DNA of 59,683 nucleotides from Candidatus Omnitrophota bacterium (GCA_015233145.1 JADFYI010000003.1:105421-165103), one strand, 5' to 3'. Counted from the first letter of the stretch, positions 13,114 through 57,070 are shown. Translations and numbers: made by a program. Notes: generated by a model from the sequence alone, not told the origin.

Positions 13114-13455
13114 ATGGGAATGACAAAAGATCAATTACTGGCCATTAAGGATGAGACCTTAAAGAAGCAGCCTGCCAGCTGGATTCGCGTTGGTTATTCG
13201 ACCTGCGGAGTGGCTGCCGGGGCTAAAGAGGTTTATGAGGTCCTGTGTGAGGAAATCAAGGCCCGCAACCTTACTCTGGAAATCAAAAAATGCGGTTGTG
13301 TCGGGCTTTGTTCGGCAGAGCCTTTGGTTGAGGTGAACGTTGAGGGCGCTCCGCGTGTTTTTTACGGTAAGGTCAATAAAGAAATTGCTCATAAGATTAT
13401 GGATGAGCATGTGTCCCAGAAGAAGCTTGTCGACGGGCATATTTACGATATTTGA
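13114..13455 (+). CDS. Thioredoxin-like (2Fe-2S) ferredoxin-domain protein of the hydrogenase operon
   Basis: The ATG at 13114 follows GAGGGGGG; the listed upstream start overlaps hydC. STCG...C...KKCGCVGLCSAEPLVEV Cys pattern. Confidence 0.8.
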   Translation: MGMTKDQLLAIKDETLKKQPASWIRVGYSTCGVAAGAKEVYEVLCEEIKARNLTLEIKKCGCVGLCSAEPLVEVNVEGAPRVFYGKVNKEIAHKIMDEHVSQKKLVDGHIYDI

Positions 13456-13517
13456 AGGAAGTTTTTTTTAAGGATTTACCCTCCCCTCAAAGGGGTTACA
13501 ACAAAAGGAAAAGGGAT

Positions 13518-15251
13518 ATGAAACGAATCCTCATTCAGGATACCAACGGCGAGTTAAAAAAGGTTTTGCGGGAGTTTTCCGTGTCTTTCAAAAGTCAGCT
13601 TCAGGACCGCGGTCTGTCTGGGCAGGCTCAGGTTGTAGTTGTGTCTGACATTGGTGTTTATAACAAAGGCATTGTGGCGAAAATTCTCCCTGAAGGCTTT
13701 ATTTACATCAATTTGGACAACGCTCATATTGCGGACATTATTGAAAAGACGGTTCTTAAAGGCGAAAAGATCGACGCTATTGCTCTTGATAAGAAAAATA
13801 AGCAGCTTCGGATTGTTTTACGTAATTGCGGGATCATTGATCCGGAAAGCATTGAAGATTACATTGCCGTTAACGGGTATCAGGGCATTGCCCGCGCCCT
13901 TGAGTTGGGGCCGGAAAAGGTTATTGAGGACATGAAAAAGTCAGGCCTGCGCGGCCGCGGCGGCGCCGGATTTCCGACCTGGCTTAAGTGGAACCTGGCC
14001 CGTAATGTCAAGGCCGATGAAAAGTTCATTATTTGCAACGGCGATGAAGGTGACCCCGGCGCTTATATGGACCGTTCTGTTCTGGAAGGCGATCCCCATT
14101 CGGTTATTGAGGGGCTCATGATCGGCGGATTGGCCACAGGCGCAACGCGCGGCTTTTTTTATATCCGCGCCGAGTACCCCCTGGCCATCCAGCGCATTCA
14201 AAAGGCGATTGACGTAGCCTATTCCAAAGGCCTGTTAGGTAAAAATATTTTGGGAAGTAATTTTAATTTTGATGTGGAAATCCGTTTAGGCGCGGGCGCT
14301 TTTGTTTGCGGCGAAGAAACTGCGCTCATTGCCTCCATTGAGGGCCTTCGCGGGTATCCCCGGCCTCGCCCGCCTTTTCCGACGACAAAAGGCCTCTGGG
14401 GCAAGCCCACGGTCATTAACAATGTCGAAACTCTGGCCAATGTTTCCTATGTGCTTTTCAAAGGCGGAGAAGAGTTTGGAAAAATCGGGACTGAAGGCTC
14501 TAAGGGCACCAAGGTTTTCGCATTGACCGGCAAGGTGCGCAATTCCGGGCTGGTGGAAGTCCCCATGGGGATTTCCCTTCGGGAAATTGTGTTTGATATC
14601 GGCGGCGGAGTTTTGGATAATCGAAAGATCAAGGCCATCCAGACAGGCGGCCCCTCGGGCGGTGTTATTCCGGAACATTTTTTTGATACTCCGGTCGAAT
14701 ATGAGACCCTTCAGAAGCTGGGGTCTATTATGGGTTCCGGCGGCATGATCGTGATGGATGAAAACGACTGTATGGTCGATATTTCGAAATTTTATTTGGG
14801 TTTTTGCGTGGATGAATCCTGCGGTAAATGCGCGCCATGCCGTATCGGGGGCATGGAAATGCTTCTTCTTCTTAAAAAGATTGCCCAGGGCAAGGGCGTT
14901 GCTGAGGACCTTACCAAGTTGTCTGAGATCGCCGAGGCCATGCAGAAGGCGTCTTTGTGCGGGCTTGGCCAAACAGCGCCAAACCCGGTTATTTCAACGC
15001 TCAAGTATTTTATGGATGAATATAAGGCTCATGTTTTTGACAAAAAGTGCCCGTCAGCAAAATGTGCAAGTTTGGTGACGTATTCTATTAACAAGGAAGA
15101 GTGCACGGGCTGCGGGATGTGTTCTCGTGTTTGCCCGGTCATTGCCATTACCGGCAGTCGCCAGGATAAGTATGCGATCGATAAGGTGAAGTGCATCAGT
15201 TGCGGCCAGTGTTTTGAAGTGTGTAAATTTAAGTCAGTTGTGCGGCAGTAA
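13518..15251 (+). CDS. hydB: NuoF-like NADH-binding flavoprotein subunit of [FeFe]-hydrogenase with C-terminal 2x[4Fe-4S]
   Basis: GLRGRGGAGFPTWLKW (FMN/NADH site), CGKCAPCRIG, CTGCGMCSRVCP, CISCGQCFEVC. The ATG at 13518 follows AAGGAAAAGGG. Confidence 0.9.
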   Translation: MKRILIQDTNGELKKVLREFSVSFKSQLQDRGLSGQAQVVVVSDIGVYNKGIVAKILPEGFIYINLDNAHIADIIEKTVLKGEKIDAIALDKKNKQLRIVLRNCGIIDPESIEDYIAVNGYQGIARALELGPEKVIEDMKKSGLRGRGGAGFPTWLKWNLARNVKADEKFIICNGDEGDPGAYMDRSVLEGDPHSVIEGLMIGGLATGATRGFFYIRAEYPLAIQRIQKAIDVAYSKGLLGKNILGSNFNFDVEIRLGAGAFVCGEETALIASIEGLRGYPRPRPPFPTTKGLWGKPTVINNVETLANVSYVLFKGGEEFGKIGTEGSKGTKVFALTGKVRNSGLVEVPMGISLREIVFDIGGGVLDNRKIKAIQTGGPSGGVIPEHFFDTPVEYETLQKLGSIMGSGGMIVMDENDCMVDISKFYLGFCVDESCGKCAPCRIGGMEMLLLLKKIAQGKGVAEDLTKLSEIAEAMQKASLCGLGQTAPNPVISTLKYFMDEYKAHVFDKKCPSAKCASLVTYSINKEECTGCGMCSRVCPVIAITGSRQDKYAIDKVKCISCGQCFEVCKFKSVVRQ

Positions 15252-15300
15252 GGAAATTTTAAATTGAATAAGAAGAGGTTTTTTGGCATTTTTATGTTTT

Positions 15301-15425
15301 TAAATAACTCTGGCTTGGACGGAGCCAAGCCAGAGTTATTTAATTCTTTCTGAATTTTTGGGAACAACATTTTTCGCCTGTTCAGGTAAGAAAAATGTTG
15401 TTCTATGGAAAATTAAATAAGGAGC
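15301..15425 (+). repeat. Bipartite intergenic element, copy A (terminator-like hairpin 1, T-rich linker, 5'-UTR hairpin 2, conserved RBS block)
   Basis: Hairpin 1 is a perfect 18-bp stem, TAAATAACTCTGGCTTGG (15301-15318) with CCAAGCCAGAGTTATTTA (15325-15342). Hairpin 2 pairs GAACAACATTTTTC (15362-15375) with GAAAAATGTTGTTC (15390-15403). It is followed by TATGGAAAATTAAATAAGGAG. Copies B and C are listed below. Confidence 0.85.
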
Positions 15426-15431
15426 TTAGTT

Positions 15432-17192
15432 ATGTCAACGGTCACTATGGTCAAGGCGCTTATTAATGGTATCGAGGTGAAAGTCCCGGCAGGGACAACC
15501 ATTTTAGATGCCGCCAGAAGCGTCCAGGTTAATATTCCGACTTTGTGCAAACATCCGGACCTGGCAGCCTCTGCAGGCTGCGGCATTTGCATTGTTAAGG
15601 CAAAAAACAACCGCAAGATGCTCCGCGCCTGTTGTACGCCGCTTGAAGAGGGCATGGATATCACCACCCATGACCCTGAAATTGTTCAGACCCGCCGCAC
15701 GGTTTTGGAACTCATTATGGCCAACCACCCTACGGAATGTTTGACGTGCGGGCGCAACAGGGATTGCGAGCTTCAGAAGATTGCAGCGGATTTCGGCATC
15801 CGCGAAGACCTTTATGAGCGTGTCCTGCCTGACCTTCCCATTGACAGGTCAACAGGCACGATTGTCATGGAGCCTAAAAAGTGTATTAAATGCGGACGCT
15901 GCATTGATGTCTGCCAGAACGTGCAGGATGTCTGGGCGCTTTCATTTATTGACAGGGGATTTAAGACGCGCATTTCTCCGGCGGGGGATATTAAGCTCGC
16001 AGAGTCTCCTTGCGTGCGCTGCGGCCAGTGTTCGGCGCATTGCCCGACAGGCGCCATTTTCGAGAACGATGAAACACAAAAGGTATGGTCGCTTTTGCAG
16101 GATCCGGACAAGCATTGTGTTGTCCAGATAGCTCCGGCTGTCCGTGTGGCTGTGGGAGAGGGGTTTGGGTATCCTGTGGGCACGAATCTGACCAAGAAAC
16201 TTTATTCGTTGCTCCGCCGCCTGGGATTCAAGGCTGTGTTTGACACGAATTTCGGCGCTGACCTGACCATTATGGAAGAAGGCACGGAATTTGTGGAACG
16301 CTTTGTAAACAAAAATGGCCCGCTTCCGCTCATTACCAGCTGCTGCCCGGCATGGGTGGATTATCTTGAAAAATATTATGGCGACATGATCAGCCTTTTT
16401 TCGTCGACAAAAAGCCCGCATGAGATGGTGGGTGCGCTGACCAAGACGTATTACGCCCAGAAAAATAATATTGATCCGGCCAAGATCAAGGTTGTTTCAA
16501 TCATGCCGTGCACAGCAAAAAAGTATGAGATTTTAAGGTCTGAAGAGATGGCGTCTTCCGGGTATCAGGACGTGGATGTGTCTTTAACCACGCGTGAACT
16601 TATCCGCATGATCAAGCAGGCGGGCGTTGACTTTAAACAGCTTCCTGATGAAGATGCCGATCTTATGCTCGGTGATTATGCGGGCGCCGGCACTATTTTC
16701 GGCGCCACGGGTGGTGTTATGGAGGCTGCGCTTCGTACGGCTTATTTTGTGATTACAGGCGAGGGTCTCAAAGACGTGAATTTTACCAATGTTCGCGGCC
16801 TTCAGGGGGTCAAGGAAACGTCGGTGGATATTAAGGGCACGGAGGTGAAAATCGCCGTGGCGCATGGCCTTAAGAATGTCAAGTTTGTCATGGATAAGGT
16901 GCGTGATGCCATCTTAAATAACAAGCCTTTGCCGTACCATTATATCGAGGTCATGGCCTGCCCTGGCGGATGCGTAGGCGGCGGCGGCCAGCCCTATATG
17001 GTCACGGATGACATCAGAAAACAGCGCGCCAAGGGGCTTTATGACGAAGATGCCGGGCTGCCGCACCGTTGCGCGCATGAGAACCCGCATGTTCAAGAGC
17101 TTTACAGAAACTTTTTAGAGAAACCTTTAAGCCATAAGTCGCACCAGTTGTTGCATACCAAGTACACGGCCAGGCCGTTGTATATCAAATAA
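15432..17192 (+). CDS. hydA: [FeFe]-hydrogenase catalytic subunit (M3-type, N-terminal 2Fe-2S and 4Fe-4S domains)
   Basis: H-cluster motifs TSCCPAW, MPCTAKKYE and EVMACPGGCVGGGGQP. N-terminal ferredoxin-like Cys clusters. Confidence 0.95.
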   Translation: MSTVTMVKALINGIEVKVPAGTTILDAARSVQVNIPTLCKHPDLAASAGCGICIVKAKNNRKMLRACCTPLEEGMDITTHDPEIVQTRRTVLELIMANHPTECLTCGRNRDCELQKIAADFGIREDLYERVLPDLPIDRSTGTIVMEPKKCIKCGRCIDVCQNVQDVWALSFIDRGFKTRISPAGDIKLAESPCVRCGQCSAHCPTGAIFENDETQKVWSLLQDPDKHCVVQIAPAVRVAVGEGFGYPVGTNLTKKLYSLLRRLGFKAVFDTNFGADLTIMEEGTEFVERFVNKNGPLPLITSCCPAWVDYLEKYYGDMISLFSSTKSPHEMVGALTKTYYAQKNNIDPAKIKVVSIMPCTAKKYEILRSEEMASSGYQDVDVSLTTRELIRMIKQAGVDFKQLPDEDADLMLGDYAGAGTIFGATGGVMEAALRTAYFVITGEGLKDVNFTNVRGLQGVKETSVDIKGTEVKIAVAHGLKNVKFVMDKVRDAILNNKPLPYHYIEVMACPGGCVGGGGQPYMVTDDIRKQRAKGLYDEDAGLPHRCAHENPHVQELYRNFLEKPLSHKSHQLLHTKYTARPLYIK

Positions 17193-29549: not shown

Positions 29550-30080
29550 ATGAGAAAAACGTTAATAGCAGTTTTGTTTTTCCTTGGCCTCGTCCTTATC
29601 AACATCCCGGTATCGGTTGCTGAGGAAGCGGAGAATGACAAGTTTTCTTTTGGCAAGGTTGTGAATGTGGCCGCGGGCCAGATCACGGTGAAGGAATATG
29701 ACTTTACCAAGGATGCGGATGTTGAAATGACCTATTCTGTAACGTCAGAGACAGAGCTTGGGAATATTAATGCTGTCACAGATCTTACAGCCAATGATGA
29801 TGTGGTTATTGACTATGTTGAAAAAGACGGCAAAAGGGTTGTTACAACCCTTGTGAAAGAGGAAAAGGGAGCAGAAACACCTGCGGCGTCAACCGCAGCT
29901 GAAGCTCCTAAAGCGCCGGAAGCCGCGCCAGCAGCAGCGGTAGCGGCACCAGCCGCTGAAGCAGCACCGGCAGCAGCTGCACCAGCCGCTGAAGCCGCAC
30001 CAGCAGCCGCACCGGCGGCAGTCGCGCCAGCCGCTGAAGCCGCGCCAGCAGCAGCGCCAGAAGCACCGGCTCAGAAATAA
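29550..30080 (+). CDS. Secreted protein with Ala/Pro-rich repetitive C-terminal tail
   Basis: RBS GGAAAGGAGAAAG, signal peptide MRKTLIAVLFFLGLVLINIPVSVA, and C-terminal (AAPAAEAAPAAA)n. Confidence 0.7.
   Translation: MRKTLIAVLFFLGLVLINIPVSVAEEAENDKFSFGKVVNVAAGQITVKEYDFTKDADVEMTYSVTSETELGNINAVTDLTANDDVVIDYVEKDGKRVVTTLVKEEKGAETPAASTAAEAPKAPEAAPAAAVAAPAAEAAPAAAAPAAEAAPAAAPAAVAPAAEAAPAAAPEAPAQK
29946..30058 (+). repeat. Imperfect tandem coding repeat (three units, GCACCAGCCGCTGAAGC-type) encoding the Ala/Pro tail
   Basis: Units start near 29946, 29979 and 30024. Confidence 0.7.
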
Positions 30081-37980: not shown

Positions 37981-38009
37981 TTGACAAATAATACTCAAAA
38001 GCCTATGAT
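37981..38009 (+). promoter_or_regulatory. Sigma70-type promoter upstream of element copy C and the FKBP gene
   Basis: TTGACA (37981-37986), 17-nt spacer, TATGAT (38004-38009). Confidence 0.6.
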
Positions 38010-38021
38010 TACAAAACTATG

Positions 38022-38140
38022 GAAACTCCATGGCAGACGGAGCCGCCCTGGAGTTGTTTGATTTTTCTTGGAATAAGGGGAAAAACATTTTTCACCATAC
38101 GGGTAGAAAAATGTTTTTCTAATGTATATTAAACAAGGAG
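38022..38140 (+). repeat. Bipartite intergenic element, copy C
   Basis: Hairpin 1 pairs AACTCCA (38024-38030) with TGGAGTT (38049-38055), with an inner GGC/GCC stem, then GTTTGATTTTTC. Hairpin 2 pairs GAAAAACATTTTTC (38080-38093) with GAAAAATGTTTTTC (38106-38119). It is followed by TAATGTATATTAAACAAGGAG. Confidence 0.8.
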
Positions 38141-38145
38141 GTTTT

Positions 38146-38739
38146 ATGAGGAGTGTTGTAGTCGCACTAGCGATGGTTGCAGGTTTAATGATGTCAGGTT
38201 CTTTAGTCAGAGCGGAGGATATGGTGATTACAAAAGGCAAGCTTGTTAAATTTGATTATACTCTGACAGTTGATAATAAAGAGGTTGAGAGCACAAAGGG
38301 CAAGCAGCCTTTGGAATATACTCAGGGCCAGAATATGTTGATTCCCGGGCTTGAGAAAGCGCTTGAAGGCGCCAAGGCCGGCGACACCAAGAAAGTGGTT
38401 GTGAAGCCTGAAGAAGGTTACGGGAAAGTGAACCCGACTTTGGTTCGTGAATTTGATAAAACAAAATTGCCTAAGGGCATGGAGCCCAAGGTGGGCATGA
38501 TTCTTGAAGTCCAGGACCCTCAAGGCAACGCTTTTCCCTGCACAGTGACCGAGGTCAAGGATAAGGTGATCATGCTTGATTTTAACCATCCGCTTGCGGG
38601 CAAAGAGCTGACGTTTGATGTCAAGGTTGTCTCAGTTGAGAACGCGCCTGTTGCTCCGGCAGCGGTTGCGGCTCCTGCGGCTGCTCCAGCGCCTGCGGCT
38701 ACGGCTCCTGCGGCCAAAGCGCCTGAAGCAAAGAAGTAA
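38146..38739 (+). CDS. Exported FKBP-type peptidyl-prolyl cis-trans isomerase (SlyD-like with insert-in-flap) with Ala/Pro-rich tail
   Basis: KFDYTLTVDNKEVESTKGKQPLEYTQGQNMLIPGLEKALEG...EEGYG...LDFNHPLAGKELTFDVKVVSV. Signal peptide MRSVVVALAMVAGLMMSGSLVRA. The ATG at 38146 follows AAGGAGG. Confidence 0.85.
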   Translation: MRSVVVALAMVAGLMMSGSLVRAEDMVITKGKLVKFDYTLTVDNKEVESTKGKQPLEYTQGQNMLIPGLEKALEGAKAGDTKKVVVKPEEGYGKVNPTLVREFDKTKLPKGMEPKVGMILEVQDPQGNAFPCTVTEVKDKVIMLDFNHPLAGKELTFDVKVVSVENAPVAPAAVAAPAAAPAPAATAPAAKAPEAKK

Positions 38740-38754
38740 TTTTTTTTGATTTTT

Positions 38755-38800
38755 AAAAAGGCTCATAGAGAAAACTATGAGCCTTTTTTATTTTTTTTAA
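38755..38800 (+). terminator. Rho-independent terminator
   Basis: AAAAAGGCTCATAG (38755-38768) pairs with CTATGAGCCTTTTT (38775-38788), followed by a T-run. Confidence 0.85.
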
Positions 38801-38918
38801 GGATTTTCCCTGCGCGGTTTTAAGAGTTGCACAAAGCATTCGCATGGAGTTATTTTTACTGCTATATTATGCAAGTATTAATCAGAGAGCTCGACAAATA
38901 ACTAAATAGCAGAGGTTA

Positions 38919-39590
38919 ATGGTGCATTTGCATGGTAATTTTTTAGATTACTTTGTAGTGTTTTTTTCCGGGATTTTTGTGAGCTTCACTCCCTGCGTTT
39001 ATCCGCTGATTCCTGTGACCGCAGCGTCTATAGCCGGCGTCAATACCTCCAAAAGCCCGTGGGTGGGGTTTCTCTTATCATTAGTGTATGTTTTGGGCAT
39101 GACCTTGTCTTACAGCATTCTGGCTGCTATTGCGATTTTGACAGGCAAGGTGTTTGGCGTGATTCAGCAGAGTCCCTGGGTTTCTTTGGGGCTGGGTATT
39201 GTATTTGTCCTGTTTGCGCTTATGATGTGGGATGTCTTGCCGTTGCCGGTTTTCAGTTTCGCTCCTCAATCCAGGCCGAAAACGCCCTGGACTGTTTTTT
39301 TGCTGGGATTTGCCTGCGGCTTTGTTATTGGCCCGTGCACAGCGCCGATTTTAGGGACATTATTGCTTTTTATAGCATCAAAACAAAACCTGGCCTTTGG
39401 GATAAGCCTTCTATTTGTGTTTGCATATGGATTAGGAACGTCCCTGATTTTGGCAGGCACGTTGAGCGGGTTTTTATCAGGCCTGCCAAAGCCAGGGGCC
39501 TGGATGGTGTGGATTAAACGGGCAGCAGGCCTTGTTTTTCTTGTTGTTGCCGTTTTTTATTTTATTCGGGTGTGGAGTGTGTTTCATTGA
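38919..39590 (+). CDS. ccdA: Cytochrome c biogenesis/thiol-disulfide transporter CcdA (DsbD-beta family)
   Basis: FTPCVYPLIP and GPCTAPIL motifs; six TM helices. Confidence 0.85.
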   Translation: MVHLHGNFLDYFVVFFSGIFVSFTPCVYPLIPVTAASIAGVNTSKSPWVGFLLSLVYVLGMTLSYSILAAIAILTGKVFGVIQQSPWVSLGLGIVFVLFALMMWDVLPLPVFSFAPQSRPKTPWTVFLLGFACGFVIGPCTAPILGTLLLFIASKQNLAFGISLLFVFAYGLGTSLILAGTLSGFLSGLPKPGAWMVWIKRAAGLVFLVVAVFYFIRVWSVFH

Positions 39591-39712
39591 GACTCTGGCT
39601 CAGGCAGAGCTTCGCCAGAGTTATTTAATCTTTTCTGGATTTGGGGGAACAATATCTTTCTCCCATTCGGGTAAGAAAGATATTGTTCCATGGTAGATTA
39701 AATAAGGAGATC
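39590..39712 (+). repeat. Bipartite intergenic element, copy B
   Basis: Hairpin 1 pairs ACTCTGGC (39592-39599) with GCCAGAGT (39614-39621), then TATTTAATCTTTTC. Hairpin 2 pairs GGAACAATATCTTTC (39646-39660) with GAAAGATATTGTTCC (39675-39689). It is followed by ATGGTAGATTAAATAAGGAG. Confidence 0.85.
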
Positions 39713-39717
39713 TTCTT

Positions 39718-40230
39718 ATGCAGGTTTTTGTTCGTTCCGTGATTCTTTTTTTTATTGTTGCATTTTCCGTCGCTGGATTTTCAGGAAAAACTTCAGCGCA
39801 GGGATTTTTTGACCATCCGTTAAGAGGCAAGGCAGCGCCTAATATTGTGCTTGAAAAGCTTGAGGGAGGGCGCGTCGGTCTTATTGACCAGGTCAAGGGC
39901 AAACAAGCGATTGTTTTCTTTTGGGCCACATGGTGCCCGCATTGCCGTGAGCAGATTCAAGCGTTAAATGCCAGGCGATCAGAGCTGGAAAAGGCAGGCA
40001 TTATGATTGAATTTGTGGATGTGGGGGAGCCAAAAGGACAGGTTAAGGCATTTCTCAAAGACCACCAGATGAGTGATAATGTTTTTCTCGATATTGATAC
40101 TCAGGCGAGCGAGGCCTATTCGGTTTATGGCATCCCGACGCTATATTTTATCGGCCGTGACGGCATTGTTCATGAGGCCTTAAACGAATTTCCTGATAAT
40201 TTTGAGAAGATACTGGGGCAAAAGCCCTGA
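39718..40230 (+). CDS. Periplasmic thioredoxin-like thiol-disulfide oxidoreductase (TlpA/ResA family)
   Basis: FWATWCPHCREQ active site. N-terminal signal sequence. Confidence 0.85.
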   Translation: MQVFVRSVILFFIVAFSVAGFSGKTSAQGFFDHPLRGKAAPNIVLEKLEGGRVGLIDQVKGKQAIVFFWATWCPHCREQIQALNARRSELEKAGIMIEFVDVGEPKGQVKAFLKDHQMSDNVFLDIDTQASEAYSVYGIPTLYFIGRDGIVHEALNEFPDNFEKILGQKP

Positions 40231-43415: not shown

Positions 43416-43469
43416 ACACCGCGGAGGTTTGGTTAGGTTATTTAAATGGTCTAACCTACGCGGTGTGCC
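43416..43469 (+). repeat. Palindromic leader element, short copy (R1)
   Basis: ACACCGCGGAGGT (43416-43428) pairs with ACCTACGCGGTGT (43454-43466) with one mismatch. The 27-nt block TAAATGGTCTAACCTACGCGGTGTGCC (43443-43469) is identical to 50581-50607. Confidence 0.8.
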
Positions 43470-43483
43470 GAAAGCAGGGGAAT

Positions 43484-44384: not shown

Positions 44385-44395
44385 GTTCCTTTTTT

Positions 44396-44590
44396 CTGTA
44401 TCAGAACTGGGAAACCGTGTGAAATTCACGGGCAGTCGCGCTACTGTAAGATGAATGAGTTCATCAAGCCAGAATACCGTCTGATATTTAAAGCATCGAT
44501 GTCGCGCGTAACGACAGTTCGAGGCGTATAGATATTGTCTATGCCCCTTGTCTGGCTTATCGCCGGGCAAGGGGCAATTTATTTTATGGA
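44396..44590 (+). ncRNA. Cobalamin (B12) riboswitch with terminator expression platform
   Basis: P1 pairs TATCAGA (44399-44405) with TCTGATA (44480-44486). Core GGGAAACCGTGTGAAATTCACGGGCAGTCGCGCTACTGT. B12 box AAGCCAGAATACC (44467-44479). Terminator pairs GCCCCTTG (44543-44550) with CAAGGGGC (44568-44575), followed by a T-rich run (AATTTATTTT); its loop TCTGGCTT can pair with the B12 box. Confidence 0.85.
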
Positions 44591-44596
44591 GAAAAA

Positions 44597-46594
44597 ATGA
44601 AAAAATTATTGAATTTGGTTTTGAGTTTAAGTGTGTTGTTGGTGTGTGCCGCTCAAGCGGACACGCTTGACTTGGGGCAGATTGTGGTGACGCCGTATCG
44701 CTATGGCGAAGCAATGGAAAGGGCGGCATCTGATGTGACTGTAGTCACTGCCAGCGATATTAAAAGGTCGAATGCCGGCAATGTGATTGATGTTTTAAGG
44801 GCAGTCCCTGGACTTATGGTCAGGGATTATTATGGCAATGGCACCAGGGCCACCGTTGATATGGCAGGCTTTGGCGAGCAGGCGCCGTTGAATGTGCTGG
44901 TGTTGGTGGATGGCCGGCGCGTGAATGAAATTGATTTAAGCGGTGTGGATTGGAGCCAAATCCCGTTGGACCGCGTTGAGAGGATTGAGGTGATCCAGGG
45001 CGGGTCTGGCGCGGCTTTGTACGGGGACAATGCCTCAAGCGGGGTTGTTAATATTATTACAAAAACAGGGGCAGGCAAGCCGCAGGTCAATCTGGAAACG
45101 CAATATGGAAGTTATGATACCAATTCTCAAAAAATTCATTTAAATGGCGGGGTTGATAAACTTTCGTATTGGTTGAGTGAAGGGCGGGAATTCAGTAACG
45201 GTTATCGCAATAACGGTTTTAACAAGGCCAATGATTTTTCCTCCAAGATCGGCTATGACTTTACCGAGGCATTATCCATGCATTTTGACTCAGGATTCCA
45301 CTCCTCGACATTTGGAATGCCGGGCGCTCTTTTCCAAAGCAATATTGATGCCAATGGCCCGCGGTATGCCAGGTTTAGCTTTGATCATGCGAATGAAAAA
45401 GATTATTACTTTGTCTGGGGCACAAAGGCCAGGGTCTTGGATTCCGGAGACTTTGATATTGATCTTTCTTATCGCAAAAAGGATTCTGATACCTACTCAA
45501 CGACGCTGGATACGCGAATAAATCACATTGAAACGGTCGGCGTCACCCCTAAGTATACGATTAAAGAAAGCGTGTTGGGGCATGATAACAAGCTGGTTAC
45601 GGGCTTTGATTTTTATCGGGTTTTATATGTTTCTGATAATTATGACCGGATAAATAAGAGCCTCACCAGTTATACCAATATCAATAAAATTTCCATGGCC
45701 GGGTACCTGCAAGATGAGTTTTCAATCTTTAAGGAGCTTGTTTTTGTGAATGGTTACCGCTATGAAAAGGCCCGCTATGCTTTTAATTATCATGATTATG
45801 TGTGGGGAAACCCTGACCAGGATACAAAAATAGCCCCTGATATGCAGGCGTTTAACAGCGGACTGGTTTATAACTATAAAGAGGACTCCAGCCTTTTTGT
45901 TAACGTGAGTAAAAGTTTTCGTTTTCCTGCGGCGGATGAATTCGGGTATTTTGATGATATGGGTGCGGCCCAGCTTAATACGGGTTTAAAGCCGCAGTCA
46001 GCCATCAATTATGAAACAGGCGTCCGCCACAAGTTTTCTGAAAGGTTAAAAGCGGATTTGTCATTGTTCAGAATGAATGTTAACGATGAACTTTATGCGG
46101 ATTATACGGCTGGAGCCGGCGGGTTCCCTCAGAATGAAAATTATGACAAGACCGTTCACCAGGGACTGCGGTCTTCTTTAGAAGCCAAGTTAAACGACTG
46201 GGTAACCTCGTTTGGCAGTTATACGTATACCGACGCTTATTTTGATGGCGGAGAGCATGGCAAAAATGAAATCCCCATGGCGCCGCGGCATAAGGGGAGT
46301 GTGGGCTTAAGGCTTCTTTTAACCAGAAATACAACGCTTAATATCACAGATACTTATGTGGGCAATAGCTATGCCCTTAATGATCAGGCCAATGCCCATT
46401 CGCGAGTGAATGGCTACATGGTTGCAGATGCCAATTTATCCTGGCGGCACAAGGATTTCAAGGTCACAGGAAGCATTAATAACATTTTTGACAAGCAATA
46501 TTCCGAGGTCGTGGGGTTTGACCGGACACGCGACAGGTTTTATTATCCAAGCCCTGGGCGGAATTACGCCTTAAAGATGAGTTGCTCGTTTTAG
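44597..46594 (+). CDS. btuB: TonB-dependent outer-membrane receptor, probable cobalamin/corrinoid receptor
   Basis: Signal peptide, TonB-box-like DTLDLGQIVVTP, plug domain (RAVPGLMVRDYYGNG, VLVDGRRVN) and terminal aromatic ...MSCSF. Located directly downstream of the B12 riboswitch. Confidence 0.85.
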   Translation: MKKLLNLVLSLSVLLVCAAQADTLDLGQIVVTPYRYGEAMERAASDVTVVTASDIKRSNAGNVIDVLRAVPGLMVRDYYGNGTRATVDMAGFGEQAPLNVLVLVDGRRVNEIDLSGVDWSQIPLDRVERIEVIQGGSGAALYGDNASSGVVNIITKTGAGKPQVNLETQYGSYDTNSQKIHLNGGVDKLSYWLSEGREFSNGYRNNGFNKANDFSSKIGYDFTEALSMHFDSGFHSSTFGMPGALFQSNIDANGPRYARFSFDHANEKDYYFVWGTKARVLDSGDFDIDLSYRKKDSDTYSTTLDTRINHIETVGVTPKYTIKESVLGHDNKLVTGFDFYRVLYVSDNYDRINKSLTSYTNINKISMAGYLQDEFSIFKELVFVNGYRYEKARYAFNYHDYVWGNPDQDTKIAPDMQAFNSGLVYNYKEDSSLFVNVSKSFRFPAADEFGYFDDMGAAQLNTGLKPQSAINYETGVRHKFSERLKADLSLFRMNVNDELYADYTAGAGGFPQNENYDKTVHQGLRSSLEAKLNDWVTSFGSYTYTDAYFDGGEHGKNEIPMAPRHKGSVGLRLLLTRNTTLNITDTYVGNSYALNDQANAHSRVNGYMVADANLSWRHKDFKVTGSINNIFDKQYSEVVGFDRTRDRFYYPSPGRNYALKMSCSF

Positions 46595-46751: not shown

Positions 46752-49700
46752 TTAGAGAAGGATTGGCCCAAGCCAGCGTTTGGCTTCGTCCAGAGAAAGC
46801 CCCTTGCGTTTGGCATAGTCTAAAAGCTGGTCATTGGCAATATGCCCGATGGAAAAATAATGGGATTTGGGGCACGCAAAATAATGGCCGCAGACAGAGG
46901 CCGCAGGCATCATCATGAGGGATTCTGTCAGGGTTATGCCGGTTACTTCGCTGGCATTCAAGATGTTGAAAAGTTGAAGTTTTTCCGTGTGGTCCGGGCA
47001 GGCGGGGTAGCCTGGCGCCGGGCGGATGCCGCGGTAATGCCCGGCAAAAATATCGTCATTGGAAAGCTTTTCATCTGGAGCATATCCCCAGTATTCCCGG
47101 CGCACAGTTTCATGCAGCACTTCTGCAAAACCCTCGGCCAGGCGGTCCGCAAGCGTTTTTAAGAGGGTGATTTTATAATCGTCTCCTTTAAAATATTTTT
47201 CTGCATTTTCCATCCCTGTTCCGCCGGTTACGGCAAAGGCGCCTAAGTAACTTTTAGCGCCGGTTTCTTTGGGGGCAATAAAGTCTGACAGGCTGTAGTA
47301 AGGCTCATCGTCTGTTTTTAAAATCTGCTGGCGGAGCATGTAAAAAGTGGTGAGGATTTTTTTACGCGAGTCATCGGTGTAAACCTCAATGTCATCCCCA
47401 ACACTGTTAGCAGGAAAGAATCCCACAACACCATGACAGGAAAGAAGCCTTTTGATAGTAATGTCATCGAGCATGGCGTTGGCATCGTTAAAAATTTTAA
47501 CAGCCTCAGGGCCAAATTTAGGGTCTTTAAGGATTGCCGGGTAACGGCCTTTTAAGCCCCAGGCCAGAAAAAGAAACGACCAGTCAATCCGTTCACGGAT
47601 GCGGCGGATATCAAAATCCTTAAGCGCCTTGGTTCCCAGAAAAGAGGGTTTTTGAATAGCCGCTTTGCTCCAGTCGAAAGAGGGCTTTAACCGGCGCGCC
47701 TCGGAAAGCGGGATGAGCCTGGTGGCAGCCTTGTTGGCCTCAAAATTCTTACGGATTTCTTCCTGTTTAGCCCGGTTAGCGGACACAAAGGCATCGCGTG
47801 TTTTTGGGTTGAGCAAATCCCGGCAAATGCCGACTCCCCGCGAGGCATCTTTGACATGCACAACCGCGCCGCTGTAGGCCGGGGCGATTTTTACGGCCGT
47901 GTGGTTTTCAGAGGTAGTGGCACCTCCTAGAATAAGAGGAATAGTAAAGCCTTCGTTTTTCATGTCTGAGGCGACCTTGACCATTTCGTCCAGAGACGGC
48001 GTAATGAGGCCCGAGAGGGCCACAATATCCACCTTAAGTTCACGGGCTTTTTTTAAGATCACTTCTGACGGTGTCATGACACCGAGATCAATGATTTCAA
48101 AATTGTTGCAGGCTAAAACAACACCTGTAATATTTTTTCCGATATCATGAACATCACCTTTGACCGTTGCCATAAGAATCCGGCCCGCGGTTTTGGCAGC
48201 GCCAGATTTTTCTTTTTCAATCAGGGGCTGGAGAATGGCCACGGCTTTTTTCATGACGCGGGCGCTTTTGACCACTTGAGGCAAAAACATTTTTCCGGCG
48301 CCAAAAAGGTCTCCCACAATGTGCATGCCATCCATTAAAGGGCCTTCAATGATAGTGAGCGGGCGGGGGTATGTTTTTAAAGCCTCTTCAATATCAATGT
48401 CAATGAAATCCGTGATGCCTTTGACAAGCGCATGAGCCAGGCGTTTTTCAATGGGCCCAGAGCGCCACGCCTGATCTTCAACAATCGCCTTATCTTTGCC
48501 TTTGAGTGTTCCTGCAAAAGAGAGAAGCCTTTCGGTTGCGTCACTTCGACGATTTAAAATGACATCCTCAACCATTTCGAGGAAATCTTTAGGGATTTCA
48601 TCATAAACCGCGATCATTCCGGCGTTCACAATACCCATGTCCATGCCAGCCTTGATCGCGTGATAAAGAAAAACAGAGTGCATGGCTTCACGAACCTGGT
48701 CATTGCCGCGGAAAGAGAAAGACACGTTGCTCACGCCGCCTGATATGCGGCAGTGGGGAAGCTTTTCTTTTATTTCGCGCGTGGCATTAATAAAGTCCAG
48801 GGCATAATTATTGTGCGCATCAATCCCCGTGGCCACGGCAAAAATGTTGGGGTCAAAAATAATATCCTCGGCAGGAAATCCAATATCCCGGGTAAGGATT
48901 TTATAAGCACGCTGGCAAATTTCAACCTTACGGGTTTGAGTGTCAGCCTGTCCTTGTTCATCAAAGGCCATAACAACTACAGCCGCGCCGTATTTTCTGA
49001 TTTTACGGGCCTGGGCTTTAAAATTGTCTTCGCCTTCCTTGAGGCTGATGGAGTTCACGATTGATTTGCCCTGCACGCATTTTAACCCGGCCTCAATAAC
49101 ATCCCATTTGGAAGAATCAATCATGACAGGGACGCGCGCAATGTCTGGTTCCGACGCAATCAGATTTAAAAATTTGACCATGGCTGCCTTGGAATCAAGC
49201 ATGGCCTCATCCATGTTAATGTCAATGGCCTGGGCGCCGGCGTCAACCTGCTGGCGGGCCACGGAAAGGGCCTCATCGTAATGGCCGTCAATAATGAGTT
49301 TTGCAAATTTCTTAGAGCCTGTGACATTGGTGCGTTCGCCGATGTTTACAAAATTTATGCCTTCCCGCAACGTCAAAGGCTCAAGCCCGCTGTAGGATGA
49401 GCAAGGTTCAAAAGAGGGCACTTTGCGCGGCAGGATTTCTTTAACTGCCTCGGCAATCGCGCGGATGTGGTCGGGAGTTGTGCCGCAGCACCCGCCAAGG
49501 ATATTGACAAGCCCGCTTTGGGCAAATTCTTTAACAAAGGTGGTCATTTCTTCGGGGGTTTGGTCATATTGGCCAAATTGGTTCGGCAGCCCTGCGTTAG
49601 GATAAGCGCTGACAAAAGTATTGGCCAGGCGCGCAAGGTCGAGAATATGCGGCCGCATGTCTTTGGCGCCCAGCGCACAGTTAAATCCGACAGCCAGAGG

Positions 49701-50420
49701 TTGGGCATGTTTCACGGAAATCCAGAAAGCCTCTGCGGTCTGGCCTGAAAGGGTGCGGCCAGAGGCGTCGGTAATTGTGCCGGAAATGATGATAGGAATG
49801 GGATGCTTTGCCGACTCATTATAGGAAAGTGCGGCATAAATTGCGGCCTTGGCGTTCAGGGTGTCGAAAATTGTTTCGATCAAAAGAACGTCAACGTTTC
49901 CCTCGCCAAGGCCCGTTATTTGTTCGCCATAGGCTTCGACCAATTTATCAAAATTGATCGCACGGTAAGAGGGGTCGTTCACGTCAGGAGAAATGGACGC
50001 TGTTCTGTTGGTGGGGCCGATAGAGCCAGCCACAAAACGCGGCTTTAATGGATTTTTTTTTGTAAATTCGTCGCAAGCCGCACGCGCGAGTTTGGCAGAG
50101 GCGAGGTTCAGCTCATACACCAAAGACTCCATGTGGTAATCCACCATGCTGATGCGATTCGCGTTAAAGGTATTGGTTTCAATGATATCTGCGCCAGCAT
50201 CAAGGTAAAGCTTATGGATATTGGCAATAATGTCCGGTCGGGTGAGGGATAAAAGGTCATTATTTCCTTTTAGGTCATGGCTCCAGTCTTTAAAGCGTTC
50301 GCCCCGGTAATCTTTTTCCGTAAGGTTGCGGCGCTGAACCATGGTGCCCATGGCGCCATCCAAAATAAGGATGCGTTCTTTAAGGAGCTTTTCGATAGGT
50401 GAAGGAGTATTCTTATTCAT
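46752..50420 (-). CDS. metH: Cobalamin-dependent methionine synthase
   Basis: Hcy-binding ([17 protein letters not shown]), pterin-binding, B12-binding DVHDIGKN (DxHxxG) and a C-terminal AdoMet reactivation domain. 1222 aa. Confidence 0.95.
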
Positions 50421-50481: not shown

Positions 50482-50607
50482 ACACCGCGGAGGTGATTTT
50501 CAAAGGATTCTTTGAAAATCATCCCGAAGACTGCCAGAGCCACCAATAGTGGCTCGGAGGCTTCGGGGTGGTGAAAAGTATAAATGGTCTAACCTACGCG
50601 GTGTGCC
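50482..50607 (+). repeat. Palindromic leader element, long copy (R2) with inserted multi-stem domain
   Basis: Outer arms ACACCGCGGAGGT (50482-50494) and ACCTACGCGGTGT (50592-50604). Inner stems pair GATTTTCAAAG with CTTTGAAAATC (50495-50520), CCCGAAG with CTTCGGG (50523-50567), and GAGCCAC with GTGGCTC (50537-50555). Confidence 0.8.
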
Positions 50608-50622
50608 AAAGGCGGCAATAAG

Positions 50623-53027: not shown

Positions 53028-53158
53028 TTTGTTATATAGGGTAATATTAACAAAAGTTAATATTGCAAAGATCTGGTTCAAGCACAGGCTTAACCAAGAT
53101 GTGGTTTTTTTGACAATCGCCAGAGATGTTTGGCTTTATTATTAAGGAGTGCAAGACA

Positions 53159-56100
53159 ATGAAAAAGATTAAAAAACCATGTCTTAGATTTCTTAAAAGC
53201 GTTGTCGTAGTTGTTTCCAGTCTTGCCCTTATCGCCCAATCTTTGCTTTTTGCCTCACCCTCTTATGCCCAAACTTCTCCCAGAATTTTAACAGGACTGG
53301 TCCCTGCATGGGTTCAGAAAAATTTTCCCGCTTACAAGACTGCCAATAATCCAGCCTCGGATAGCATGGTTATTGACACCAGGGTTGTTTTGCCTTTAGC
53401 TCCGGATGCGCAAACCAAACTCAATGCCTTGCTTTTAAGCTTATATAGTCCTGAAGATGTTAATTTTGAATCTTTTATCACTCCTGCTGTATTTAATCAG
53501 TCATACCGGGCTTCGGATGCCGATATTGCGGCTGTAAAAAGTTTTCTTACGGGTTATGGCCTTAGTGTAACAGCACAGTCTCTTAACGGGACAGTATTAT
53601 CAGTGCGCGGTCCGGTTTCGGCTTATAATAAAGCATTTTTTGGCGGCGCTTCAGCCATACAAATGTTTCCAGGATGGGGGACTGCCCAACACTATGCGCC
53701 TAATCGCAATGCCACAGTGCCATCAGGAGTTAATATCCTGGAGGTCGCTGGCCTGGATGATTGCCCAAGGTATAATCCACATGCTCTTCCTGGTCCGCAA
53801 ATCGTATCTCCTGCAATAGGTCATGCCCCGAACGGGGCTTTAGCGCCCGCAGATGTCAAGGCAGCGTATAATTTCCAGTCATTTCCCGCTCCAACTTCGA
53901 CAACAGAAGTCACTCCGCCGCTCATTACACAGCAGCCAACGGATGTAACGGTTATAACTCCGGCATCGGCAACTTTTACAGTGGCAGCCGCAGGCTCACC
54001 TGCGCCGGCATATCAATGGATGAAAATGCCAAACGGCAGCACGGCTTATGCACCTGTTCTCGGGGCAATAAGCGCAACTTATTCCATAGGAGCGACAACA
54101 GTTGCTGACAGCGGAACGTATCAATGCGTGATTACAAATGATGCCGGCAGCGTCACCAGTAATCCGGTAAAATTAACAGTGAGCCCTGTAACGGCAACCC
54201 TTACGATTGTAAAAGCGCCGTCTTCTCAGTCCGTTATGGCAGGGGACGCGGCGACTTTTTCAGTATTAGCCAGCGGACCTGCTCCAATAACATATCAATG
54301 GATGGTCAAACCACCTGCTGGCACTATGAGCAATATTCCTGGAGCCACGGGCCCTGCCTATACCACTGGTTCGACAACTCTTGATATGGCCAGAACAGTT
54401 TATTATTGTCTTGTGGGAGGCTCTATTTATGTCTCGGCCCCCTTATTGGTGAGGCCAGCGGTAGCTCCGACTATCACAGTTCAACCAAAAAGCCAAACAG
54501 TGACGCCATTGAGCCCTGTAACCATGACTGTAGCGGCCACAGGTTTTCCTGCGCCAAAATATCAGTGGGTGAAAAAGCCTATAGGCGCTGGCCTTATTAA
54601 TGGCATTAGTGCCGACTATTTGCCCATTCCCGGAGCCACAGGCTCCACATTTACTCTTAATACAACAACACTGGTGCAAAGCGGCGCATACGCTGTTACT
54701 GTTACCAATTCTGCCGGGAGCGTGACCAGCAGTCCGGCGACAGTCACAGTTACCTCTGCGATTCCGAGCTATGCAGGGAAAACTAATATTGCCCTTTTGG
54801 AGTTTGATGGGTATCAGTCTGCGGATATCGCAACCTTTGAAAAAGAATTTGCGCTTTCGCATGTGCCTTTGATTAATGTTCCTGTTAACCGGTTTATTCC
54901 GCCCCTTGATTATACTGTTACAGGAGGAGCCAGCCAGGCAACACTTGATGTTGAGTCTCTGGAAGCCTATGCGCTTGGGACAAAAGCGATTTATGTTTAT
55001 CAGGCGAGCAATACCGCCAATGGCCTGATAGATGCCTTGGGGCAAATGGTTAATGCCGCAACAGCCGCCGGAAAGCCGCAGAATAATGTTATCAGCCTTA
55101 CCTGGGGCGCTCCTGAGCACCAGACCGTCACAGCCAATTTTTATAATCAGATGGCCCAGCAGGCCGCGGCCCAGGGGATAAGTGTTCTGGCTGCTTCAGG
55201 GGATAATGGTGCTTATGATGACCCGTTAAACCCTCAAATAGCATCCGTGGATTTACCTGCCAGTTTGCCTTATGTCACGGCGGTTGGAAGCACAAGTCTT
55301 GCAGCCAAAAATGGAACATATGCTGAATCAGCCTCAATGCTGGGCGGCGGCGGTGTAAGCCGGCTTTGGCCTATTCCATTTTATCAGGTTCCCATTGTTA
55401 CCCCCGGCGCAGCAAGGACTGCAAAACTGTCACCAAGCTATCGTAATCTGCCGGATACAGCCCTTAATGCAGATCAATCAACCCCATATGCATTTCGTAT
55501 TAATGGAGCTTGGGGGGGGTATTCTGGTACAGCCATAGCAACGAATATTGTGGCATCGTTGGTGGGGCTCGTGGACCAGGGGCTCAGTCAATTAACCAGA
55601 GATACGATACCTTCCATAGGGCTTATTAACCCTATGTTTTATAATTTTGCGCAGGATCCTGTAAATTATCCTGGAAATTTCAAGGATGTTATTTCTGGCA
55701 GTAACGGTTATTTTACAGCCGTGAAAGGTTTTGACGCTGTCACGGGATTTGGATCCGTTGATTTTTTTAAAGGATATCTGAATCTTGTGAAAAGTGCGTT
55801 ATTTATAAAATTTGAGACCAATGGTTTTCTTGTTGGAAACTGCGCGGTGAATATCGCTGATCCCGCAAATCCGTGTCCGATTGGTCAAGATCAATACAAC
55901 CTTTCTGGCACAAGGTATTTCGCCTGTTGCGCTAATCCTCCTCAGGGGAAAACGGTTTTTGCTCAACCTGCAACGATAATCGCCCTGAAACAAAAAGTAG
56001 CCAGTCCCATGTTTGCAGCATGGGCAGGACCAAGCGGAGAAGATGTGCTTGGTGGTGCAATAATAGGTATAGCATTTGTTATTATAGTTTTTTCCATATT

Positions 56101-57070
56101 CGGCTCAGTTGCGCCAATTGTTATTGCTGCCGTTGTTATTGGCGCTGCGATAGGCGGAGCGGTTAAATATGCGACAGGAGATGATCATTTAAATCCTCCG
56201 AAGCCAACTCCGACCCCAACGCCAACTCCGACGCCAACACCAACGCCGACACCGACACCAACGCCAACGCCGTGTCCTTCTGCCCAGCCGACAAGGTGCA
56301 ACGGGACGTGCACCAATACCAGCACAGATGCCAGTAACTGTGGTGGTTGTGGGAACGTATGCTCAGCTACGGGACAAACATGTCAGAGCGGGAGCTGTAA
56401 GTGTCCTGGTACGCAGGTCGTTTGTGCAGGGGCTTGCACGGACACACAGACAAGCAATAGTAACTGCGGCGGCTGCGGGATTACATGTTCAGGCGGAGAA
56501 AGCTGCCAGAGCGGAGCTTGCAAGTGCCCCAATGGTGGCAAAGTGGGAGACAACAATAATTGCGGTGCCTGCGGGACTCAATGCACAAATGGAGAAACCT
56601 GCCAGAGCGGCGCGTGCAAGTGTCCTAGCGGTTACCTAGGAGACAACGATAATTGCGGTACCTGCGGGCATGCATGTACTGCTCCAGATTCATGCGTAAA
56701 TGGGCAATGTGTTTGTCAGCCTCGGACATGCTCTTTTTATAATGCCGATTATCATGCCAATGACAATGCCTGTGGAGTTTTTGATGACGGGTGTGGCAAG
56801 ACAATTGATTGTACAACATGCGCCGCTCCTAAGGTTTGTTCGGGGCCTCCTCTTACTATCCCGCCTCCTCCGATGTGGCAGGGAGTTTGCCAGGACCCCT
56901 GTTGCACTCAGACAAGTGCCGTGACGATTACATTAGGGGGGCAGCCATCAAGCGTCTTGGCTGTTCAAAAAACACCGACAGTAATAGCCAATGTTGTGGG
57001 GTGTATTTGCACAACGCCAACAGCATCGACAATAACGTTTTATAAATATTTAACAGGCTCTAACAAATAA
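53159..57070 (+). CDS. Sedolisin (peptidase S53)-like surface protein, predicted catalytically inactive. Order: pro-kumamolisin prodomain, 4 inserted Ig-like repeats, S53 core, hydrophobic hairpin, (PT)11 linker, 4 Cys-rich modules
   Basis: The ATG at 53159 lies 9 nt after AAGGAG. S53 motifs LAPADVKAAYNF, IALLEFDGY, VLAASGDNGAYD and DVISGSNGYFTAVKGFDAVTGFGSVDF. Triad positions read QATLD (expected ExxLD) and SGTAIAT (expected GTS). Ig repeats end in YQCVITNDAGSVTSNPVKLTV-type strands. Confidence 0.8.
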   Translation: MKKIKKPCLRFLKSVVVVVSSLALIAQSLLFASPSYAQTSPRILTGLVPAWVQKNFPAYKTANNPASDSMVIDTRVVLPLAPDAQTKLNALLLSLYSPEDVNFESFITPAVFNQSYRASDADIAAVKSFLTGYGLSVTAQSLNGTVLSVRGPVSAYNKAFFGGASAIQMFPGWGTAQHYAPNRNATVPSGVNILEVAGLDDCPRYNPHALPGPQIVSPAIGHAPNGALAPADVKAAYNFQSFPAPTSTTEVTPPLITQQPTDVTVITPASATFTVAAAGSPAPAYQWMKMPNGSTAYAPVLGAISATYSIGATTVADSGTYQCVITNDAGSVTSNPVKLTVSPVTATLTIVKAPSSQSVMAGDAATFSVLASGPAPITYQWMVKPPAGTMSNIPGATGPAYTTGSTTLDMARTVYYCLVGGSIYVSAPLLVRPAVAPTITVQPKSQTVTPLSPVTMTVAATGFPAPKYQWVKKPIGAGLINGISADYLPIPGATGSTFTLNTTTLVQSGAYAVTVTNSAGSVTSSPATVTVTSAIPSYAGKTNIALLEFDGYQSADIATFEKEFALSHVPLINVPVNRFIPPLDYTVTGGASQATLDVESLEAYALGTKAIYVYQASNTANGLIDALGQMVNAATAAGKPQNNVISLTWGAPEHQTVTANFYNQMAQQAAAQGISVLAASGDNGAYDDPLNPQIASVDLPASLPYVTAVGSTSLAAKNGTYAESASMLGGGGVSRLWPIPFYQVPIVTPGAARTAKLSPSYRNLPDTALNADQSTPYAFRINGAWGGYSGTAIATNIVASLVGLVDQGLSQLTRDTIPSIGLINPMFYNFAQDPVNYPGNFKDVISGSNGYFTAVKGFDAVTGFGSVDFFKGYLNLVKSALFIKFETNGFLVGNCAVNIADPANPCPIGQDQYNLSGTRYFACCANPPQGKTVFAQPATIIALKQKVASPMFAAWAGPSGEDVLGGAIIGIAFVIIVFSIFGSVAPIVIAAVVIGAAIGGAVKYATGDDHLNPPKPTPTPTPTPTPTPTPTPTPTPTPCPSAQPTRCNGTCTNTSTDASNCGGCGNVCSATGQTCQSGSCKCPGTQVVCAGACTDTQTSNSNCGGCGITCSGGESCQSGACKCPNGGKVGDNNNCGACGTQCTNGETCQSGACKCPSGYLGDNDNCGTCGHACTAPDSCVNGQCVCQPRTCSFYNADYHANDNACGVFDDGCGKTIDCTTCAAPKVCSGPPLTIPPPPMWQGVCQDPCCTQTSAVTITLGGQPSSVLAVQKTPTVIANVVGCICTTPTASTITFYKYLTGSNK
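56204..56272 (+). repeat. (Pro-Thr)11-Pro coding microsatellite-like linker
   Basis: CCA ACT CCG ACC ... encodes PTPTPTPTPTPTPTPTPTPTPTP. Confidence 0.9.

Follow-up and report, generated by a model that had tools for sequence, protein, structure and literature searches.

A lineage-specific family of small structured repeats, probably co-transcribed and possibly acting as mRNA punctuation, next to Shine-Dalgarno sequences in Candidatus Omnitrophota

The DNA analysed here, a stretch of 59,683 nt to which we refer as the window, is placed in Candidatus Omnitrophota by the homologues of its HydA, the best non-self homologue being 87% identical; in a neighbour-joining tree this protein (P0006) is the sister of the window HydA. 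Three homologous stretches lie on the + strand of the window: copy A (15303-15426) between hydB (13452-15251) and hydA (15432-17192), copy B (38021-38142) flanked by an ORF of 1147 aa and by a gene for an FKBP-type isomerase (Pfam FKBP_C; ATG at 38146), and copy C (39588-39711) between a ccdA/DsbD_TM gene, whose stop codon occupies 39588-39590, and a TlpA-like thioredoxin gene (ATG at 39718). All three have one orientation and co-directional neighbour genes, and each abuts an AAGGAG Shine-Dalgarno sequence (SD). A first-pass annotation of this DNA had described three such copies before the hydA, FKBP and tlpA genes, and all of them are indeed there, on the + strand.

The relatedness of the copies is readily detected. 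In a repeat search, copies A and C matched at 81% over 118 nt, and A, B and C could be jointly aligned over 61 nt at 72-79%. Each single copy, used as an nhmmer query against the window, retrieved the other two (E 8e-20 to 9e-10), and beyond these the best match on that strand of the window reached only E > 0.5. Likewise, the 13-mer ATTAAAYAAGGAG occurs three times in the window with at most one mismatch, against 0.12 occurrences expected. Neither a profile search nor an unfiltered scan of the whole 59.7 kb with a covariance model of the element (R1) returned a fourth or partial copy; the matches of R1 at 44540-44615 and 38679-38806 (at most 22 bits) are the terminator of a riboswitch and that of the FKBP gene. 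The unit measures about 115 nt (copies 115-124 nt), with an upper bound set by copy C, where 39591-39703 occupies the entire space from the ccdA stop codon to the SD; shorter than 300 bp, non-coding and dispersed over unrelated loci, it resembles a MITE in these respects. A conserved small ORF across the element was considered and dropped, since the reading frames differ among the three copies. [quoted passage not shown]

The element is built from three helices. Hairpin 1, of 13 bp, carries a conserved ACTC...GAGT clamp, and its loop reads GACGGAG or GGCAGAG; hairpin 2 combines a stem of 15 bp with a TA(A) bulge and an apical stem of 3-4 bp. Both agree with the first-pass description. The third helix, P3, is long-range: TTATTTAAT, located after hairpin 1, is reverse-complementary to ATTAAATAA, located before GGAG. 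It begins at the nucleotide following hairpin 1 and was produced unprompted by the RNAalifold consensus, in which alignment columns 36-44 pair with 108-116; within it lie a linker of 14 nt, hairpin 2 and a return strand of 5 nt. What had been described as a bipartite element is thus tripartite, and the "conserved RBS block" assigned to it is really the 3' strand of P3 followed by the SD of the host gene itself. As to hairpin 2, the sequences of the arms and apical mini-stems quoted in the first-pass annotation are right and the labels of copies B and C were swapped: the arms given there for copy B belong to the copy at 39590, and those given for copy C to the copy at 38022. The features are the following.

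15306-15337, + strand: copy A hairpin 1, 13-bp stem AACTCTGGCTTGG / CCAAGCCAGAGTT with loop ACGGAG; terminator-like; -22.3 kcal/mol
15338-15346, + strand: copy A P3 5' strand ATTTAATTC, directly 3' of hairpin 1 (RNAalifold, pair counts)
15347-15360, + strand: copy A U-rich linker TTTCTGAATTTTTG, predicted single-stranded, with TTCTGRAT and a pyrimidine run UUUCU that could pair with the SD
15361-15404, + strand: copy A hairpin 2, 15-bp stem, AA bulge and 4-bp apical stem; -20.8 kcal/mol
15410-15418, + strand: copy A P3 3' strand AAATTAAAT (RNAalifold, pair counts)
15419-15434, + strand: site A host AAGGAG SD, 7-nt spacer and hydA ATG (15432), outside the inserted unit
37981-38009, + strand: sigma-70-like promoter of the FKBP gene, TTGACA-17-TATGAT, 11/12 matches
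38024-38055, + strand: copy B hairpin 1, two mismatches; five compensatory pairs relative to copy A
38056-38064, + strand: copy B P3 5' strand GTTTGATTT; column pair 36-116 changed from A-U to G-C, 40-112 from A-U to G-U
38079-38120, + strand: copy B hairpin 2; -18.5 kcal/mol
38126-38134, + strand: copy B P3 3' strand ATATTAAAC (RNAalifold, pair counts)
38135-38148, + strand: site B host AAGGAGG SD and ATG (38146) of the FKBP-type isomerase gene, matching TAAGGAGGGTTTATG in relative L024
39591-39622, + strand: copy C hairpin 1, its first base right after the ccdA stop codon (39588-39590)
39623-39631, + strand: copy C P3 5' strand ATTTAATCT; column pair 43-109 reads C-G, against U-A in copy A
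39646-39689, + strand: copy C hairpin 2; -25.3 kcal/mol; two compensatory pairs relative to copy A
39695-39703, + strand: copy C P3 3' strand AGATTAAAT (RNAalifold, pair counts)
39704-39720, + strand: site C AAGGAG SD, 8-nt spacer and ATG (39718) of the TlpA-like thioredoxin gene (sequence reading, Pfam)

When folded by itself, the 85-nt P3 unit forms P3 and hairpin 2 in all three copies, and the fold z-scores of the copies on the + strand are -8.6, -3.5 and -4.7. Within the linker, the motifs UUUCU and TTCTGRAT are kept among copies.

The pairing of all three helices has been preserved while the sequences diverged by 20-30%. Across the three copies, 94.3% of the cells of the 41-pair structure are standard pairs and 12 of the 41 pairs have changed on both sides, compared with 4.9 +/- 1.7 in column shuffles (0 of 500 as high); with three sequences, and a structure derived from the same three, these are strong indications below the level of an R-scape-grade test. 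When the 3' partners were slid by 1-3 columns as a control, pairing fell to 40-51% and double changes to at most one. P3 takes part in the covariation: one A-U pair of copies A and C is G-C in copy B, and another A-U pair has become G-U there. The divergence between copies amounts to 21-30% at stem positions and 26-40% at unpaired positions, and since these are nearly alike, the stems are not merely more conserved. Nonetheless, 37-40 of the 41 pairs are intact between copies where random substitution leaves 23-28, a value at the observed level being reached in none of 20,000 simulations. The compensatory changes claimed earlier are thereby borne out, by the double-changed pairs as well as by the shuffles and simulations, and these, together with the nhmmer E-values, also uphold the broader claim of a selected structure or structured repeat family rather than chance. 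That base pairing operates on the sense strand is weakly indicated, with five G.U cells against two A.C cells on that strand and a P3 unit that is 1.4-6 kcal/mol stabler on the + than on the minus strand in each of the three copies.

Relatives allow us to see what these sites look like without the element. At site A, the hydB-hydA spacer measures 180 nt in the window, 26 nt in the sister (TAATTGATTTTTTAAAAAGGAGCTCATTCATG) and 21 nt in a second lineage, and copy A therefore does split the hydB-hydA operon, as had been proposed. Spacers of 75-83 nt with unrelated hairpins of their own are present in two further lineages (L028, 9900-9975; L019, 9917-9990), so that an intercistronic hairpin seems to have arisen repeatedly at this junction; the one in L028 is built partly from a duplicated hydB 3' end (GCAGTCTTGAGGCA[A/G]TAG twice), and the GACGGAG common to it and the hairpin-1 loop is at chance level given the number of comparisons. 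At site C, ccdA and tlpA are 127 nt apart in the window but 13 nt in the sister, and another relative has a spacer of 28 nt; in relative L024, nothing but AAAAGGAATTGAT lies between the two genes. At site B, the FKBP 5' UTR of the sister (relative L024) measures about 57 nt and is free of the element, the promoter being kept. Presence/absence polymorphism, another hallmark of MITEs, is thus seen at all three sites, each of which is empty in the sister lineage, as they are in other relatives, and the three copies are therefore insertions specific to the lineage of the window. The absence from the sister at 3/3 sites speaks against a conserved regulatory leader of these genes, and a structured repeat family is for this reason the preferred reading. 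Searches of 28 loci from relatives (about 310 kb, including near-duplicate loci) with R1 and nhmmer gave no copies of the element, and no analogous dispersed repeat was found within these loci.

The same comparisons bear on where the element ends. From AAGGAG to ATG, the window sequence at site A (AAGGAGCTTAGTTATG) matches AAGGAGCTCATTCATG in relative L017, and that at site B (AAGGAGGTTTTATG) matches AAGGAGGGTTTATG in a relative, from which it follows that the SD is that of the host gene and that the element ends just 5' of it. Judged by these alignments, the host genes at sites A and B had this SD before the insertion, and it is not cargo of the element. Each copy was inserted between an upstream gene end or promoter and the pre-existing SD of a co-directional downstream gene.

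Some further observations concern the surroundings of these start sites. An AGGAG-type SD is recognisable in only about 10 of 40 genes of the window, and a perfect AAGGAG in 3/3 element-associated genes. The hydA gene on record encodes 581 aa from the second ATG (15447); given that the ATG at 15432 has AAGGAG at 7-nt spacing and opens an N-terminus, MSTVT, that is conserved in relatives, the deposited start is probably five codons short. Between the hydB stop and hairpin 1 of copy A lie about 50 nt (15252-15305; GGAAATTTTAAATTGAATAAGAAGAGGTTTTTTGGCATTTTTATG...) which are absent in the sister and not part of copies B and C, and which hold an SD-like AAGAAGAGG and an ATG.

Are the copies transcribed, and in which direction? 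The FKBP promoter, whose -35 and -10 blocks are conserved in the sister (relative L024) with a different spacer between them, lies directly upstream of copy B and therefore puts this copy in a 5' UTR. Copies A and C are operon-internal, given that the corresponding spacers in relatives have merely 13-28 nt. A scan for sigma-70-like promoters returned none in the span with copy A and flagged three around copies B and C, none of them inside an element, and no sigma-54 promoter was found on reading the sequence. On the evidence of gene order and promoter position, the copies thus lie in sense-transcribed DNA, two in operon-internal spacers and one in a 5' UTR, and with every copy either downstream of a promoter or inside an operon, sense-strand RNA of the element must exist.

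This has consequences for hairpin 1, which the first-pass annotation had called terminator-like. As hydA, tlpA and the FKBP gene need to be expressed, hairpin 1 cannot terminate with full efficiency. Copy A is the only one flagged by a terminator scan (19 pairs, tail TTCTTTCT); copies B and C have interrupted tails (UUGUUUGAU and UUAUUUAAU) and went unflagged. The tail of copy A is itself an interrupted U-tract, closer to the terminator tail of an AdoCbl riboswitch (44543-44590) than to the clean terminator at 38755-38788, a bona fide terminator with a run of T in the vicinity of the copies.

Comparisons with databases returned no relative of the element. At gathering thresholds, Rfam 15 yields just the AdoCbl riboswitch elsewhere in the window, and permissive Rfam scans over the copies gave sub-threshold noise only, in keeping with the earlier statement that this was no known motif. 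An IUPAC pattern with free stems had 8 genome-contig, 8 metagenome-contig and 0 viral-contig matches in collections without the genome of the window; these matches were judged to be due to chance (nhmmer E >= 0.001, R1 <= 15 bits), and the best of them, in L013, turned out on reading to be a plain terminator, promoter and RBS. A hairpin-2-specific pattern had no match in viral contigs, and blastn against plasmids and phages returned nothing. An integron attC site and a group II intron remnant were each rejected on sequence and context. The guanidine-II mini-ykkC motif was rejected as well: ACGG is present in some loops but unconserved, and there is no Rfam match.

The window has other features of regulatory or repetitive nature. 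The AdoCbl (B12) riboswitch is located at 44385-44527 (+; Rfam RF01482, 54.3 bits) and is followed by a terminator-like hairpin at 44543-44578; by synteny with relative L024, the gene behind it (44597-46594) encodes a TonB-dependent receptor, and the one at 46752-50420, on the other strand, is MetH-like. A 33-nt direct repeat (TAAATGGTCTAACCTACGCGGTGTGCC...; 43443-43475 and 50581-50613, 94% identical) has its copies just upstream of, or overlapping, the starts of + strand ORFs at 43463 and 50623, and may represent either a small repeat or a regulatory motif common to the two. Coding low-complexity repeats are located at 29880-30073, 38656-38711, 56186-56293 and 56324-56679; a 176-aa ORF contains Ala/Pro-rich runs, as does the FKBP protein at its C-terminus, and an ORF of about 1300 aa (53126-57070) combines a Thr/Pro run with four Cys-rich repeats of about 96 nt.

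Given all of the above, the explanation that we favour, with a probability of roughly 0.5, is a lineage-specific family of small, AT-rich structured repeats of the ERIC/BOX/RUP/SPRITE/Correia kind that acts as mRNA punctuation. The parts of this explanation are not equally firm: that the element is a co-transcribed structured interspersed repeat under selection for pairing is quite likely, while the specific mechanism of punctuation, which is largely drawn from analogy, is tentative. In the modelled RNA fold, hairpin 1 is stacked on a long interrupted rod formed by P3 (9 bp), an internal loop of 14/5 nt and hairpin 2 (15 + 4 bp). Hairpin 1 might then act as a leaky terminator or as a 3'-end protector for the upstream cistron. 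An endonuclease of the RNase E or Y type may cut in the AU-rich internal loop with its TTCTGRAT; alternatively, an enzyme of the RNase III type may cut in the interrupted duplex of about 28 bp, the predicted duplex length (15 + 4 bp in hairpin 2 and 9 bp in P3) being adequate for an RNase III substrate, which calls for about two turns of duplex. Hairpin 2 and P3 would subsequently shield the new 5' end and keep the U-rich linker off the SD, and the outcome would be that expression of the neighbouring cistrons is uncoupled and the downstream gene unblocked. An RNase III site, an mRNA stabiliser and a device for tuning translation are all plausible functions. On the other hand, the SD is predicted thermodynamically to be paired for the most part, and its partner changes from copy to copy, which counts against the step in which the SD is kept free. 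The placement next to an SD, seen in three copies, may be real or a matter of survivorship.

Several of these features would also be explained by a purely selfish DNA-hairpin element with no RNA role, be it a palindrome-associated element derived from IS200/IS605 or another MITE, an alternative that we regard as unlikely, though not to be passed over lightly. Such an element would insert strand-specifically beside the complement of the SD, CTCCTT, which lies on the minus strand; its pairing would be kept by a transposase reading ssDNA hairpins or by templated repair of the quasi-palindrome, and its copies would survive just where CTCC is non-coding, i.e., at SD sites. The identical orientation of all three copies next to AAGGAG, the empty sites in relatives and the AT-rich composition all fit, and compensatory change alone cannot separate RNA from ssDNA hairpins. 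The P3 unit even has formal MITE anatomy, its 9-bp terminal inverted repeats (TTATTTAAT...ATTAAATAA) lying between RGAG direct repeats (GGAG/GGAG in B, AGAG/GGAG in A and C), although the whole element including hairpin 1 is not bounded in this way. No target-site duplication of the whole element is consistent across the three copies (TAAATAA flanks it in copy A only), as the selfish model would have it. Against this model, the left flanks share no target motif. The strand speaks against it too, for on the minus strand, which the CTCCTT model makes the active one, the five G.U cells turn into C.A mismatches and the P3 unit is less stable. Furthermore, copies that have diverged by 20-30% retain almost no decayed pairs, unlike old neutral insertions; a Pfam scan of the annotated ORFs of the window showed no transposase, and no parent IS was found.

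We consider it improbable that the element is a translational riboregulator, namely a portable, self-folding RNA module which homes to SD sites or is retained there and switches between two forms: in the open one, P3 is formed and leaves the SD free, and in the closed one, UUUCU of the linker is paired with AGGAG. Temperature, or a protein or ligand at the asymmetric internal loop, would set the balance between the two, and the downstream gene would gain the control offered by such a mobile riboregulator or insulator. Constrained folds of the two forms lie 1.4-5 kcal/mol apart, the closed one being favoured in copies A and B and the open one in C, and the conservation of UUUCU and TTCTGRAT as well as the predicted pairing of the SD fit such a switch. 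RNA thermometers rely on weak helices, to which P3, an all-A/U helix adjoining the SD, can be likened. However, covariation does not back the anti-SD pairing, since an invariant SD leaves nothing to covary and will pair with any run of pyrimidines, and the predicted partner varies by copy. It would also be a switch for hydA, an FKBP isomerase and a TlpA-like thioredoxin, which share no evident regulatory logic, and one that relatives do without; Rfam scans showed no likeness to a known riboswitch. Very improbable, finally, is a dsDNA operator in which the hairpin-2 arms serve a dimeric transcription factor controlling the three genes: there is a 14-15-bp inverted repeat near gene starts, but its arms co-change so as to preserve complementarity and not a fixed recognition sequence, a G.U-type asymmetry is present, the 14-nt spacer itself forms a covarying mini-stem, two copies are operon-internal and far from promoters, and copy B is downstream of its promoter.

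To our knowledge, the Omnitrophota are uncultivated, and their post-transcriptional control and small mobile DNA are almost unknown. Here, an element with three intact helices divides an otherwise compact hydCBA hydrogenase operon and a gene cluster for periplasmic folding. If it marks points of processing or termination, this would be an example of an operon re-punctuated by a repeat. If, instead, the portable-module reading were true, any downstream gene, even one inside an operon, could acquire a new translational or processing control, and a mobile switch close to the SD would be a natural counterpart to the synthetic insulator parts of genetic engineering. R1 provides a clean covariance model which can be used to scan Omnitrophota MAGs.

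Several known systems invite comparison. RNase III sites of phage T7 are intercistronic and have two stems, lower and upper, separated by an asymmetric internal loop; once they are cut, the upstream RNA ends in a protective 3' hairpin and the downstream RNA begins with a short leader that holds the SD. The likeness of our element to them is structural only and not one of homology, and its internal loop is much larger (14/5 nt). REP/BIME sequences, for example at malE-malF, are intercistronic stem-loops too, which shield the upstream mRNA from 3' exonucleases and bring about differential expression within operons. REPs are GC-rich palindromes of 20-40 nt with a conserved GTAG head, mobilised by RAYTs and usually arranged in inverted clusters. 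The element is like them in forming intercistronic stem-loops and differs in sequence, size and composition, with 115 nt, 35-40% GC, two different hairpins and solitary copies, and we therefore rejected an assignment to REP/BIME.

Closer in size and composition are SPRITE, BOX and RUP of Streptococcus pneumoniae, AT-rich repeats shorter than 200 bp which number tens to hundreds of copies, are confined to a single species or lineage and are predicted to fold extensively when co-transcribed (PMC3049150). SPRITE in particular combines an 18-bp duplex with a U-rich tract, resembling a Rho-independent terminator, and has no clear target-site duplication known (PMC3049150). With SPRITE the element shares a terminator-like hairpin 1, and with all three its small size, AT-richness, confinement to one lineage and predicted folding; unlike them, it fuses the terminator-like hairpin to a second, palindromic unit bounded by inverted repeats, and there is no sequence similarity. 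While the pneumococcal repeats are enriched between convergent genes or downstream of coding sequences (PMC3049150), the present copies are co-directional with their neighbours in 3/3 cases and abut the downstream SD.

The ERIC/IRU elements of enterobacteria and the Correia elements of Neisseria (CREE), about 100-150 bp long, are imperfectly palindromic, carry terminal inverted repeats and are located in transcribed intergenic regions, where Correia RNA hairpins are cut by RNase III and ERIC exposes RNase E sites, so that the stability of flanking cistrons is altered (PMC10969869, PMC2649163, PMC3184786). Both families are found in either orientation and show promoter or IHF motifs as well as, in Correia, defined TA duplications; none of this was seen here, and the element, without sequence similarity to either, has an extra, separate 5' hairpin and a single orientation in three copies. 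It is like them in its palindromic build, in its inverted repeats, which here delimit the P3 unit, and in its insertion into transcribed intergenic DNA. On our best reading, the element, which matches no Rfam 15 family, is a previously undescribed family within the small structured repeats of bacteria.
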